A model generated the notes under the pieces. It was given only the letters and a program-made list of their open reading frames with translations, was not told the origin of the DNA and ran no database searches. A program made the position numbers and the translations under genes. Below are positions 1-4,510 of a DNA stretch of 6,627 nt, one piece after another; the stretch's first letter is position 1, and every line of letters begins with the position of its first letter. This DNA is from a virus. Taxonomy: Duplodnaviria > Heunggongvirae > Uroviricota > Caudoviricetes. Where the stretch lies: positions 1 through 6,627 of IMG/VR virus record IMGVR_UViG_2778261592_000001, one strand, 5' to 3'.

Positions 1-2054
1 TCGGTCAGAATGGCTGATTGTGCTTCCCGTGACTGTTTCAGCCACCACTTAATGGTGTCCCGATCGATGACTCCGCCTGCGGTTTCCAGATCGATAGTTT
101 TGCTGAATTCTGGCCCCATCTCTCCGGTTGCCGGATCAAAAAACTTACCGGCCAGAGCGTTTATTGGGGCATCAGGATTTTTGCCCATTGTTTCAAGGTT
201 AATCATCAGATGGTGCCACAACCTGCTGGTGGATGTGCTTTCACGATGACCGTTCACCTTAATTAAGGGATTTGCTGTCTCGCCACTTTCATTATCTGTG
301 GTGTGGTAGTGATCGCCGCCAGAGCCTTCCATTTCTTCCTGAGCTTCAGCCTGATTTTCTTCATCGAGTGTTTCCTGGTAGGTTGCGTTGCCCATCACCG
401 CGCCACAGTCAGGACAGTTGCCGCCACCGCTCTGACCGCAGGCGGTGCAGACTTTTTCCTCTTCCTGTTGCGCTACTGGTTCGGATTGTTTCGTTTCTGG
501 CTCGTCTTGTAACGCATTTTGGCTGTTTTGTTCTGCTTTCTGGTCGTTCTGTTCCGTTTCTTGCTGGTTCTGGTTCACAGAATCGCAGGTTTCAATCCCC
601 TTAACCCATTTCGGATCATTCGGGTCGCTAATCCCCTCAACAAATTCACCACGCGATACAGCAAGTAACTTATCGGCGTCAGGCTGGCTGATATTGGCTG
701 CCTGCATAATTTTGTTTACTTCGTCAGCGGTGACTTTTACTTGGTTAGCGGAACTCACCTGCGACTGAGCGTTCTGGCAATGTTCAGTTGTATCCGGTTC
801 CATTGTTTCAGTTGTTGCCTGTTCACCTGCCATTGCGTCAGATGGTTGTGGTTTTTCTTCTTCTGTTTCACGTTCAGTAACCACCTCGCGGTTAATTTCT
901 TCCAGGATATCTTTTTCCGGCGTATGCCGGGCAGCTGTGAGAGTTTCCTTGCTGGGGTTCTCGTGATCAGTTTCCGTCAAATAGGCGTTGATATACCCCT
1001 GAAGGCGTCCCGGGTAGTGATAAAATTCAGGGTGTGCGCTTCGGATAAGTGCAAAAATAGCGGCGCGGGAATAGTCCAGAATACCCGGGGTTGCACGAAG
1101 TGCTGCGGACCATTCTTTGAACGGACTTTCTTTTTTCAGGACTACTTCTTTTGCGCGACGATAAACGCTGCCCGGAATTTCATAAATATTAAAATCCATC
1201 GGAAGTGTGGCAGCTGCAATCTCCACATCCAGTGTGTCGAGGGTGTGTACTAAATTCGGATTGCGATCGGTTTTGTTCCCACCGCCAGCATTAGCACCGG
1301 AAGCCGTGCGGGTGATGCGTGAAACACGATTTCCTTTCATCCACTCTTTTGTCAGCAGACCTCGATCAGTGTAGTCAGCGTCCAGGTATGCTTCGAAAAA
1401 AGCAGTTATTAGTCCCAGGTCTGAATTACCCGGATTAGGGAAAACTTTGTCAGTGTCACGAACCAGTTTGTGGAGGTCGCGAATCTCCAGCGAGTCGAGC
1501 AGACTGGTTTTATGCGAAATAGCCAGGGCAGTAACAGCCGGTAGTTCTTCAGCCCGTGCAATGTGTAATGCCTGGAGTTCGTCGCGTGAAACGTGCGTTA
1601 CTGGTTTTTCGCTGCCGTGTTGAGCAAGCCAACGAATGGGCAATTCCTGACCGGAGACAGGCAGAAGCATGCTCTCCTCAATCTCAGTCATGTCTTCGCC
1701 GTTGATGTTGGTATTGTCAGTGCTGGCTGGTTTGTCCTGAACAGAGGGGGAAGGGCCGATAAATGTCATTGTGATGCCATCTTTCCCGCCTTTTTCATAG
1801 CGGTTGCAGAATTCAGTATCAAACACGCCTTCTGGCGGAAGGTCGTCAACAACGGGCAAATTGACGCGGACGGGTTTTTTAAAGTCGTCTTCATCATAAT
1901 CGTTGTCATCCATTGCAGTAATGCAGCGGGAGATTGCAACAGATAATTTTTTTGCTGTAGTCCAGTAAAAACCACCTTTAATTCCCAGGCGTTTTCTTAC
2001 TTTGTCATTTTTTGCTTCGCAATATAGTGCAAATTCTTCTTTATCAGTGCTCAT
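1..2054 (-). CDS. recE: RecE-like exonuclease VIII family protein, N-terminal 684 codons; C-terminus lies beyond the left edge
   Basis: Uninterrupted minus-strand reading frame from ATG at 2054 ([15 protein letters not shown]...) to position 1, hand-translated with no stop; not in the ORF track because it is edge-truncated. A long block ([85 protein letters not shown]) matches my recollection of the Rac prophage RecE N-terminal region. Sits directly downstream of ydfD, where K-12 has the ydfE fragment. Weak GAGG Shine-Dalgarno 14-17 nt upstream. Confidence 0.7.
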
Positions 2055-2690: not shown

Positions 2691-2733
2691 AAAAAGGGCG
2701 GCAGAGCAGTCACGGAGTAAAACTGATACCGCC
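2691..2733 (-). terminator. Rho-independent terminator forming the DicF 3' end
   Basis: Minus-strand GGCGG (plus 2729-2733) pairs with CCGCC (within plus 2696-2701), followed by a five-U tract (plus 2691-2695). Confidence 0.6.
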
Positions 2734-2748
2734 AAACGTCACCAGAAA
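2696..2748 (-). ncRNA. dicF: DicF small regulatory RNA (53 nt)
   Basis: Minus-strand sequence UUUCUGGUGACGUUUGGCGGUAUCAGUUUUACUCCGUGACUGCUCUGCCGCCC followed by UUUUU (plus 2691-2695) matches recalled DicF exactly. 3' GC-rich stem (GGCGG/CCGCC) plus U-tract forms the intrinsic terminator. Confidence 0.85.
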
Positions 2749-3758: not shown

Positions 3759-3793
3759 GGCAGCCAAAAAGATAACGCATTGATTGCGTTATC
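3759..3793 (-). terminator. Candidate intrinsic terminator at the end of dicA
   Basis: Inverted repeat GATAACGCA (3771-3779) / TGCGTTATC (3785-3793) with 5-nt loop; the dicA stop codon lies in the stem. On the minus strand it is followed by TTTTT (plus 3766-3770). Confidence 0.45.
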
Positions 3794-4196
3794 TTTTGTT
3801 TGTTCGTTGACGGGCTTTTAATAACTCTTCAAAGAGTTTGTTGAAATTTTTTACTCGGGCGCGCATCTCGGTGAGCTGAGCATCCTGTTCTGATTCAGGC
3901 AATGCATTAAAAAGCTCAAGGAGCTCATGTTCTTTGGGGGATAGAGCAACTGGCTCCTCAATAGGTGGTGATGGCTGCTTGTCTTCATCGCCAAATAGAA
4001 TCCATGTTGGCGAGCACTGCAGTACTTTGCTGAGGGCAAAAAGATTCTTTCCTGTAGGTTCGCTATCATCCCGCTCCCATTGTGAAACCGATACGTGAGA
4101 AATTTTCAGGACTTTAGCAAGAGACCTTTGGGTGTATTTGAGGTTTTTTCGGCGATATCTAATGCGTTCGCCAATGGTTAAATTTTTTGTATCCAT
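3789..4196 (-). CDS. dicA: DicA, CI-like HTH (XRE family) prophage repressor, 135 aa
   Basis: MDTKNLTIGERIRYRRKNLKYTQRSLAKVLKISHVSVSQWERDDSEPTGKNLFALSKVLQCSPTWILFG... near-identical to recalled K-12 DicA. Divergent from the Cro-like gene. No obvious Shine-Dalgarno. Confidence 0.9.
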   Translation of the reverse strand: MDTKNLTIGERIRYRRKNLKYTQRSLAKVLKISHVSVSQWERDDSEPTGKNLFALSKVLQCSPTWILFGDEDKQPSPPIEEPVALSPKEHELLELFNALPESEQDAQLTEMRARVKNFNKLFEELLKARQRTNKR

Positions 4197-4279: not shown

Positions 4280-4510
4280 ATGCTTAAAACTGACGCACTT
4301 TTGTATTTCGGTTCAAAAACAAAACTTGCACAAGCTGCTGGTATTCGTTTGGCTTCGCTTTATAGCTGGAAAGGGGAGCTAGTACCTGAAGGTCGCGCGA
4401 TGCGCCTGCAAGAGGCATCCGGCGGGGAACTTCAGTACGACCCCAAAGTTTATGACGAATATCGTAAGGCAAAGCGGGCGGGGCGGTTGAACAATGAAAA
4501 TCACCCCTGA
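4280..4510 (+). CDS. dicC: DicC, Cro-like regulator, 76 aa
   Basis: MLKTDALLYFGSKTKLAQAAGIRLASLYSWKGELVPEGRAMRLQEASGGELQYDPKVYDEYRKAKRAGRLNNENHP matches recalled DicC. TAAGG 8 nt upstream of the ATG. Confidence 0.9.
   Translation: MLKTDALLYFGSKTKLAQAAGIRLASLYSWKGELVPEGRAMRLQEASGGELQYDPKVYDEYRKAKRAGRLNNENHP

Follow-up and report, generated by a model that had tools for sequence, protein, structure and literature searches.

RecE of the Rac prophage, or exonuclease VIII, is a 5'→3' double-stranded DNA exonuclease, and acts with its partner RecT as a two-component recombinase. Its N-terminal region was still described as 'of unknown function' in a 2023 review, in agreement with the original prediction made for the DNA analysed here, and the protein region in view in that DNA is homologous to it. 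Other described systems enter the comparison from the catalytic side. DexA of phage T4 is a stand-alone DEDDh exonuclease whose residue D7 is listed as catalytic, and EcD, a DexA-like protein of Escherichia coli, is reported to cut the DNA of T4 and to make E. coli resistant to this phage (PMC12153337). In lambdoid phages, DnaQ-like nucleases have been proposed to trim within Rec modules (excerpts of PMC12315714). In the Qin prophage of E. coli K-12, finally, the corresponding place is taken by a pseudogene, ydfE.

The gene and its extent

The stretch of DNA analysed here (the window, 6627 nt) begins within a gene that belongs among these systems. A minus-strand ORF runs from 2054 to 1 and off the left edge of the window, 684 codons without a stop, just as originally described; all of the features given below with window positions lie on this strand. 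Its ATG is at 2054–2052; a GAGG lies 10 nt ahead of it, and the frame is closed by stops 5 and 6 codons before the ATG. Contigs L005–L008 are 99.9% identical to the window over all 6627 nt, and in these the gene continues, with no stop or frameshift just past the window edge, to a length of 796 aa. Positions 1–2054 thus cover codons 1–684 of the gene's 796. In all likelihood the product is a modular prophage protein, a RecE-type N-terminal region followed by a DEDDh 3'–5' exonuclease, and not an orthologue of RecE. The two-domain architecture is identical in all 120 of its best homologues. The expectation that this prophage keeps a full recombination exonuclease gene was therefore right about the gene, which is intact, and wrong about the nuclease, which is DEDDh rather than RecE-type.

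The gene is not new. Among 5426 complete E. coli genomes, 4707 contain sequence that matches parts of it, it is annotated in thousands of genomes, and public records call the product a 3'–5' exonuclease; databases also often label it exodeoxyribonuclease VIII or RecE family. For tests that reach past the window edge we used a full-length homologue, P0002.

The N-terminal region resembles RecE

When compared by BLASTP with Rac RecE, the protein is 55% identical over aa 58–598 (RecE 50–591), and matches nothing beyond. A small alpha+beta domain occupies aa 1–100 (1755–2054), and Pfam's Exonuc_VIII family, PF06630, which is also present in P0002, matches aa 57–189 (1488–1886) at 125.7 bits (cut-off 25; E 2.8e-36). 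A helical domain follows at aa 190–380 (915–1487; pLDDT 83–98), for which a structure search of the PDB gave no significant neighbour. Of the family's folded parts, residues 270–360 show the strongest conservation, and the YdfE-type alleles discussed below have them too.

The original prediction placed everything in view within the N-terminal region. The homology to the RecE N-terminal region is real, but the view extends further, since the catalytic domain already begins in positions 1–215, with 71 of its residues. It is ahead of this domain, at aa 598, that the homology to RecE stops. On the NCBIfam RecE equivalog profile, NF007259, Rac RecE scores 1830 bits over positions 1–877, whereas P0002 scores 867.4 bits against a cut-off of 1269, and covers only positions 1–600 of 877. 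RecE's PD-(D/E)XK domain, PF12684 (DUF3799), the nuclease domain known from crystals, is found by Pfam in Rac RecE and not in P0002.

The catalytic domain is of the DEDDh kind

What P0002 has instead is a domain of the Rv2179c-like, or DexA-like, DEDDh 3'–5' exonucleases. PF16473, a Pfam family named after an exoribonuclease, matches it with 205.4 bits over aa 614–786 (cut-off 27); in the window the first 71 residues of the domain (aa 614–684, positions 1–215) score 71.6 bits, and the remainder lies outside. An exonuclease domain had been expected downstream, and one is there, although it belongs to the DEDDh superfamily and not to RecE's PD-(D/E)XK. The top match of the complete P0002 C-terminal domain is T4 DexA (8kel), both by sequence (E 9e-7) and by fold (Foldseek, E 9e-8), and the next are RNase T, oligoribonuclease and REXO2. 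The 684-aa fragment found no match in a sequence search of the PDB; only the complete P0002 domain found DexA. P0002 has the DEDDh residues D619, E621, D719, H769 and D774, which correspond to D7, E9, D119, H186 and D191 of DexA. Judging by its family, the enzyme should remove nucleotides from 3' ends, of DNA rather than RNA, with a polarity opposite to that of RecE, and would therefore leave no 3' overhangs for a RecT-type annealase.

The window's own copy departs from this pattern at one residue. Codon 619 (198–200) is AAC, and specifies Asn at the position that aligns with DexA D7, where the Exo I motif (MIDLET) elsewhere has its first metal-binding Asp. The substitution, D619N, is unique among the 135 homologues checked; the others have Asp. 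The five-residue set is thus incomplete in this copy (N619), and its last three members lie beyond the window. Provided that the base is correct, catalysis is probably impaired in this copy.

D619N hangs on a single base of one short contig, at window position 200, and might be due to an error in sequencing.

Neighbouring genes

The gene is the last in an early operon of the dicBF type (ydfABC-dicF-dicB-ydfD), repressed by DicA, in a Qin-like prophage. Upstream, in the same operon and on the same minus strand, are a ydfD-like gene (DUF1482; 2148–2336), which is the immediate neighbour, dicB, which encodes a cell division inhibitor (2333–2521), and the small RNA DicF (2696–2747; 76.7 bits to Rfam RF00039, whose gathering score is 48). 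The window itself stops before the gene ends, so what follows must be read from related loci. In L005–L008 the order is dicB, DUF1482, the 796-aa gene, xis, int and then host genes; in L001, L002 and L009 it is the same, with xis and int right after the gene. A recT partner had been anticipated to the left. None adjoins the gene in any of these seven loci, where xis and int come next, and the early-left operon of the near-identical contigs has no annealase or SSB gene. In Rac, recT comes after recE.

Could the protein nonetheless be an intact RecE orthologue, a 5'→3' double-stranded DNA exonuclease with a RecT partner? Its N-terminal ~600 residues are RecE-like, and many databases name it exodeoxyribonuclease VIII or RecE family. 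Against these, its catalytic domain is DEDDh rather than PD-(D/E)XK, its score is below the RecE equivalog cut-off, and xis and int come next in all of the near-identical or related loci examined. We consider the idea very improbable. Membership of the RecE family as such is refuted by the other nuclease superfamily, the missed equivalog cut-off and the lack of recT.

ydfE of K-12 is another allele in the same slot

K-12 Qin was said to have only a disrupted fragment where this prophage has an intact gene, and so it does: ydfE lies at the same position and is cut by IS2. The relationship between the two is indirect. A direct BLASTP comparison of K-12 YdfE with the window's protein finds no similarity (E 3.3), because IS2 cuts after residue 256 and what is left of the protein does not resemble it. 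Over residues 1–256, K-12 YdfE aligns at 99% identity with the beginning of P0132, a protein of 823 aa. P0132 in turn matches the window's protein from aa 270 onwards to its end, a part that includes both the Cys4 block and the DEDDh domain. By these alignments K-12 ydfE is the IS2-cut remnant of an allele in the same gene slot, one that has an unrelated N-terminal module. That ydfE might be an unrelated gene is ruled out by the DEDD-type alignment and the P0132 matches.

The linker, its conserved peptide and its Cys4 motif

Between the helical and catalytic domains lies a long linker, aa 381–613 (216–914), acidic, rich in Gln and Glu, and mostly disordered (pLDDT mostly <50, and <50 across much of aa 405–613). 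In aa 481–600, each block of 40 residues has 5–12 Asp+Glu, 2–8 Gln and 1–3 Lys+Arg. The acidic, Q/E-rich stretch noticed at the outset (~260–700) falls inside this linker, the true start of which is further upstream in the gene, at ~914 (~aa 381). Both length and sequence of the linker differ among alleles. Its most widely conserved element is a 21-residue peptide at aa 463–483 (606–668), which stands out from the surrounding disorder with pLDDT 79–85, and which most representatives have, whatever the type of their tail. Rac RecE shares a 10-residue peptide of the linker, and Pfam's DUF4072 matches weakly at 449–476.

The second element is a 19-residue motif, aa 535–553 (396–452), that contains four cysteines: C536-x2-C539-x7-C547-x2-C550 (CTACG…CPDCG). 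The Cys codons are at 447–449, 438–440, 414–416 and 405–407, respectively, so that the Cys-to-Cys span is exactly the 405–449 first reported; the spacing between the CxxC pairs, given as x10, is in fact x7 (GQSGGGN). CxxCG…CPxCG is the classic rubredoxin-type knuckle pair, and the likeness to a zinc ribbon noted earlier holds at the level of this signature, making the motif a candidate zinc knuckle or mini zinc ribbon. The original prediction was unsure whether canonical RecE has this insert. It is not an insert; Rac RecE has a counterpart block, also of 19 residues, with the same Cys4 motif.

Does the motif bind metal? The block might instead be a lineage-specific remnant of the linker, or a redox or disulfide element that plays no part in the structure, and several observations would suit this. 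Pfam's DZR family (PF12773) matches at 14.7 bits, below its cut-off of 27.3 (E 0.035). AlphaFold's confidence in the block is low to moderate, with pLDDT <50 when 18 sequences were used, and ~62, with flanks of ~40 and a beta-bridge between 535 and 542, when 101 were used. The motif is missing from most distant relatives, and two natural variants, P0112 and P0122, have lost one Cys or the whole first knuckle. Conservation within the close lineage argues the other way. Of 120 close homologues, 119 keep all four Cys, as do all 12 of the distinct variants of the block that come from further afield; both knuckle Gly and the Pro are likewise invariant in these, while the adjacent residues vary, and the Cys codons differ synonymously between alleles. 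The pattern C..C.{4,25}C..C is rare by chance, turning up in 14 cases when the 684-aa protein was shuffled 100,000 times, and the knuckle signature itself fits. Stable disulfides are unlikely, too, because the protein is cytoplasmic. We therefore regard a role without metal as rather unlikely. The better reading is that the block probably forms a small structural zinc site in a flexible tether, confined to the Escherichia-type sub-lineage and found there with either nuclease. Conservation, the point on which the prediction was to be checked, thus holds in the close lineage and fails across the wider family. From the sequences compared, the motif is not essential for that wider family, because distant relatives mostly do without it and P0112 and P0122 have lost a Cys. 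Among the titles and abstracts listed by a literature search on RecE, none connects RecE with a zinc motif.

One N-terminal region, several tails

Representatives (at 50% identity) with this N-terminal region end in a DEDD tail, a PD-(D/E)XK tail or one that is neither, and the Cys4 block occurs with each kind. Tails of the 'neither' kind gave, at Pfam E ≤ 0.001, just one RecT fusion and one weak DUF3799; one type has a sub-threshold match to Rad52_Rad22, at E 0.11 a hint only. The shared region presumably acts as a common targeting or scaffolding module that can carry various DNA-end enzymes. We suggest, tentatively, that it might serve as an interchangeable platform—for the RecE nuclease, the DEDDh nuclease, a possible Rad52-like domain, and short helical tails—with the conserved 10-residue linker peptide and the Cys4 knuckle (the latter in the Escherichia lineage) as docking sites for a common partner, perhaps the ends of DNA, or a protein of host replication or repair. 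If this is true, a common partner would explain the need for full-length RecE in linear–linear recombination, which has long gone unexplained.

What might the enzyme do?

Two kinds of work can be envisaged, by analogy, for an exonuclease in this setting. The first is anti-phage defense, or superinfection exclusion, of the 'HREX' kind, in which incoming phage DNA containing 5hmC would be cut from its 3' ends and host DNA spared. The C-terminal domain is a DexA homologue, EcD is reported to cut T4 DNA and to give protection against T4 (PMC12153337), the Asp equivalent to DexA D169 is present, and the operon already holds host-modulating or exclusion-type functions in dicB and dicF. The HMMER alignment with DexA is equivocal: DexA D169 aligns with an Asp here, but W152, which stacks on 5hmC, aligns with a Thr, with a Trp three residues earlier, and the position is variable in the family. 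EcD is, moreover, a different, stand-alone protein, and the operon is normally repressed by DicA. We think a defensive role unlikely. That the present protein is the published EcD itself can be dismissed, since the primers show that EcD starts MIDTET and ends TIPETYD, and stands alone.

The second is service as an accessory nuclease of the Rec module, trimming 3' ends or flaps as phage DNA recombines or replicates, in concert with host or distal annealing functions. Genes for DnaQ-like 3'–5' nucleases are packed into lambdoid Rec modules, according to PMC12315714; the same paper has it that 3'–5' exonucleases usually inhibit homologous recombination. The present gene sits in the position of Rac's recE-recT, between the early left genes and xis-int, and in relatives the same N-terminal region is joined to RecE-type nucleases and to the possible Rad52-like domain. 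The Rad52 match is, however, only E = 0.11, and the early-left operon lacks an annealase or SSB gene. The accessory role is conceivable, and we lean against it somewhat less than against defense.

The gene itself is ordinary, and its value lies in the corrections to annotation that it calls for. Names such as 'exodeoxyribonuclease VIII' or 'RecE family', when taken from the N-terminal region, can hide a nuclease of the opposite polarity that has no RecT, and it would be wrong to include such proteins among RecET recombination systems or to choose them for recombineering. Two elements that canonical RecE also has, the conserved peptide and the Cys4 block, offer handles on the function of its N-terminal region through peptide and Cys-to-Ser mutants.

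Comparison with known systems

The 'RecE-2' proteins and DnaQ-like nucleases of PMC12315714 resemble the present protein in being, respectively, RecE-related without the RecE nuclease, and 3'–5' nucleases from lambdoid early-left regions; in the available excerpts they are treated as separate proteins, and a fusion is not described. The E. coli defense exonuclease EcD, or 'HREX' (PMC12153337), is likewise an E. coli-encoded member of the DexA-like family, but it is a separate, stand-alone protein, and the anti-T4 activity is reported for EcD.

T4 DexA (exodeoxyribonuclease A, PDB 8KEL/8KEN) has the same fold (TM ~0.65–0.71, normalised to the target) and the same catalytic DEDDh residues. It differs in standing alone, at 227 aa, with extra loops and without the RecE-type N-terminal region, and in having W152, implicated in 5hmC recognition, where a Thr aligns here. 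The K-12 Qin pseudogene ydfE (b1577) shares the gene slot after dicB-ydfD, but alleles of its type (P0132) begin with an unrelated module of ~245 residues that has no PF06630.

Rac RecE (b1350, 866 aa) shares the N-terminal ~590 residues, with PF06630, the helical domain, the conserved peptide, the acidic linker and the Cys4 block, and occupies the same slot in the lambdoid early-left operon, upstream of xis-int. Its first ~57 residues are unlike those of the present protein, and recE is followed by recT, which the present gene is not. Above all, its nuclease is PD-(D/E)XK (PF12684) and works 5'→3', whereas the nuclease here is DEDDh (PF16473), and would work 3'→5'.

A RecE-type N-terminal region with a different nuclease

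From 2054 to 1 on the minus strand, the window has an uninterrupted frame of 684 codons that, as the original prediction had it, is still open at the left edge. The ATG at 2054–2052 is preceded by GAGG, and in-frame stops lie 5 and 6 codons upstream. NCBI holds the window as a 6627-bp E. coli contig, its protein (P0001) named 'exonuclease, partial'. In four longer contigs (L005–L008), 99.9% identical across the whole window with 4–6 mismatches, the gene encodes 796 aa (P0002), so the frame is neither closed nor shifted immediately beyond the edge. The gene is already catalogued and annotated: 4707 of 5426 complete E. coli genomes match parts of it, 945 of them with coverage of at least 80%; several PHROGs families cover it; and public data already list PF06630 with PF16473 as a precomputed combination. 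Its alleles are also mosaic: window 336–2054 has 98% matches in many E. coli genomes, which then diverge over 1–335, where the linker ends and the nuclease domain begins.

On the 684 residues, Pfam places PF06630 (Exonuc_VIII) at aa 57–189 and PF16473 (Rv2179c-like 3'-5' exoribonuclease domain), over its first 70 positions, at aa 614–683, where the window edge cuts it; in P0002, PF16473 is complete at aa 614–786. This is not the full RecE recombination exonuclease that had been proposed. BLASTP aligns P0002 with Rac RecE (exonuclease VIII, b1350) at 55% identity over aa 58–598 (RecE 50–591), and finds no further similarity beyond aa 598; Rac RecE continues into a PD-(D/E)XK domain, PF12684, which Pfam does not find in P0002. 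The NCBI RecE equivalog model matches P0002 over the first 600 of its 877 positions only, scoring 867 bits against a cut-off of 1269. The exonuclease domain expected downstream is present, but it is of the DEDDh type, PF16473, instead of RecE's. Its nearest solved relative is phage T4 DexA (PDB 8KEL), by sequence (E 9e-7) and by Foldseek (E 9e-8), followed by RNase T, oligoribonuclease and REXO2, which identifies it as a DEDDh exonuclease. The catalytic set of P0002 is complete—D619, E621, D719, H769 and D774—and corresponds to the DexA residues given in PMC12153337. The protein is thus a chimera in which the non-catalytic region of RecE precedes a nuclease from another superfamily. From family membership, the polarity of this nuclease would be opposite to that of RecE, and we infer that the enzyme acts as a 3'→5' exonuclease on DNA ends.

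The window's own copy differs from P0002 by one amino acid in 684: N619 for D619, codon AAC (window 198–200, minus strand) for the GAC of the near-identical contigs. In the DEDDh Exo I motif, D619 provides the first metal-binding Asp, and it aligns with DexA D7. Asp occupies this position in all 117 other close homologues with a readable motif and in 17 of 17 DEDD-type representatives, leaving N619 unique among the 135 homologues checked. The change may be an inactivating mutation, or it may equally be an error made in sequencing a short contig; should the base be right, the enzyme of this isolate is probably impaired.

Exchange of modules and tails

K-12 Qin was said to hold only a disrupted fragment of the gene, and it does, although direct comparison conceals the relation: K-12 YdfE does not resemble the protein of the window (E 3.3). 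K-12 ydfE (L004:5079–5999) is a pseudogene followed by IS2E, its residues 1–256 being 99% identical to the start of an 823-aa homologue, P0132, whose own alignment with P0002 starts at aa 270 and runs as far as the C-terminus, linker, Cys4 block and DEDDh domain included. By sequence, then, the gene has at least two unrelated N-terminal modules, of PF06630 type and of YdfE type, and either can precede a common set of middle domain, linker and DEDDh domain (K-12 ydfE and the homologues P0132, P0163 and P0180). K-12 ydfE is a YdfE-type allele truncated by IS2 where the shared part begins.

A search with aa 1–613 against a representative library of 1.84 billion proteins returned 252 relatives. 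Among representatives of at least 400 aa, our local classification gives roughly 17 DEDD tails, 25 PD-(D/E)XK tails and about 45 that are neither. The same N-terminal region carries other tails among P0177, P0129, P0268, P0247; P0125, P0134, P0155, P0233, P0241; and P0124. These include a domain that weakly matches Rad52_Rad22 (E 0.11) and a short helical tail, 'LTWKQRLTIAAIQGLCANP'; in one representative the region is joined to RecT. In the literature searched, we found no account of catalytic tails and N-terminal modules being exchanged systematically.

The linker and its Cys4 block

AlphaFold, with the deeper, 101-sequence alignment, confidently predicts an alpha+beta domain at aa 1–100 and a helical domain at aa 190–380, with a stretch of lower confidence at aa 133–190 and a mostly disordered linker from about aa 381. 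The acidic, Gln/Glu-rich composition noticed earlier around the motif is borne out, with very few basic residues. Amid this disorder one peptide, aa 463–483 (window 606–668), reaches pLDDT 79–85; no other element of the linker is conserved so widely across all tail types, and the peptide looks like a docking motif.

The four cysteines, C536, C539, C547 and C550 (motif string aa 535–553), span exactly the 405–449 first assigned, with 7 residues between the pairs in place of the supposed 10: CxxC-x7-CxxC. Only 14 of 100,000 shuffles of the protein give the pattern. Of 120 close homologues 119 retain all four, as do 12 of 12 more distant variants of the block, while neighbouring positions vary, and the Cys codons differ synonymously between alleles; the block is real, and no chance pattern. 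Canonical Rac RecE has the same block, then MGDATYQETFDEE, so it is not an insert specific to the window's gene. The motif is confined to one sub-lineage: Cys stands at the motif columns in only 13–19 of 97 more distant sequences (101-sequence alignment). The consensus, C-x2-C-G-x5-[NHK]-C-P-D-C-G, occurs in about ten of the representatives of at least 400 aa, with each tail type.

CxxCG and CPxCG are the classic pair of rubredoxin-type zinc knuckles. Other tests speak less strongly for zinc: the Pfam double zinc ribbon model falls below threshold (14.7 vs 27.3 bits). At the block, AlphaFold gives pLDDT below 50 with an 18-sequence alignment, and about 62 with a beta-bridge, flanks about 40, with 101 sequences. 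It is reasonable to suppose that the block binds zinc. We found no description of it in RecE in the literature searched.

Two natural variants have lost part of the block. P0122 joins GANAGGGN straight to CPDCG, through a deletion between two GGGN repeats that costs it about 285 residues along with the first CxxC; P0112 reads CPDYG, the fourth Cys lost. At the same linker site, relatives without Cys4 (P0130, P0136–P0138, P0141, P0174, P0180, P0188, P0203 and P0254; alignment A3, columns about 930–970) have a conserved G-x-G-[VIM]-[FY]-[SD]-[VI]-x-x-L-[MLVF] peptide, often with SNE[GV]EKTE nearby; both look like short motifs that serve as alternatives in the tether.

Gene neighbourhood and possible roles

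In L005–L008 the order is dicA, ydfA, ydfB, ydfC, (dicF), dicB, DUF1482/ydfD, the window's gene, xis, int and host genes; the same operon end recurs in L001, L002 and the phage record L009. Within the window, the ydfD-like gene (DUF1482) lies at 2148–2336, dicB at 2333–2521, dicA at 3789–4196 and dicC at 4280–4510, followed by replication genes. The DicF small RNA (2696–2747, minus strand; Rfam RF00039, 76.7 bits) has ydfC and dicB on either side, the arrangement also seen in K-12 Qin. Three further window-specific transitions, at 2529, 2542 and 2554, lie together in the 33 nt that precede the dicB start codon (2521); all four contigs, otherwise 99.9% identical, have the other base. In L009 (Escherichia phage vB_EcoM-606R7, ON470580.1; 6001–8444) the gene is split into two CDS, both labelled exodeoxyribonuclease VIII, and is flanked by host genes and tRNAs, which suggests that the record is a predicted prophage whose copy is disrupted.

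A recT partner had been anticipated beyond the left edge. In Rac, recT directly follows recE; here xis and int come next instead, and the gene order of L005–L008 contains neither recT nor any other annealase gene. Domain identities, gene order and this absence of an annealase are firm ground, and three roles are compatible with them. The protein may serve as an accessory nuclease in the region for phage recombination or replication: PMC12315714 places DnaQ-like nucleases in lambdoid Rec modules, but also has them usually inhibiting recombination. A remnant without current role is compatible, too. So is an inter-phage defence nuclease resembling EcD, a stand-alone E. coli DexA homologue that cleaves 5hmC DNA and protects against T4. 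EcD, however, is a different protein, and the position of DexA W152 is Thr in the window-type protein, so defence would be only an analogy. The Cys4 of RecE and the exchange of tails and modules do not amount to a new kind of system, but they give a modest lead on what the N-terminal region of RecE may do.
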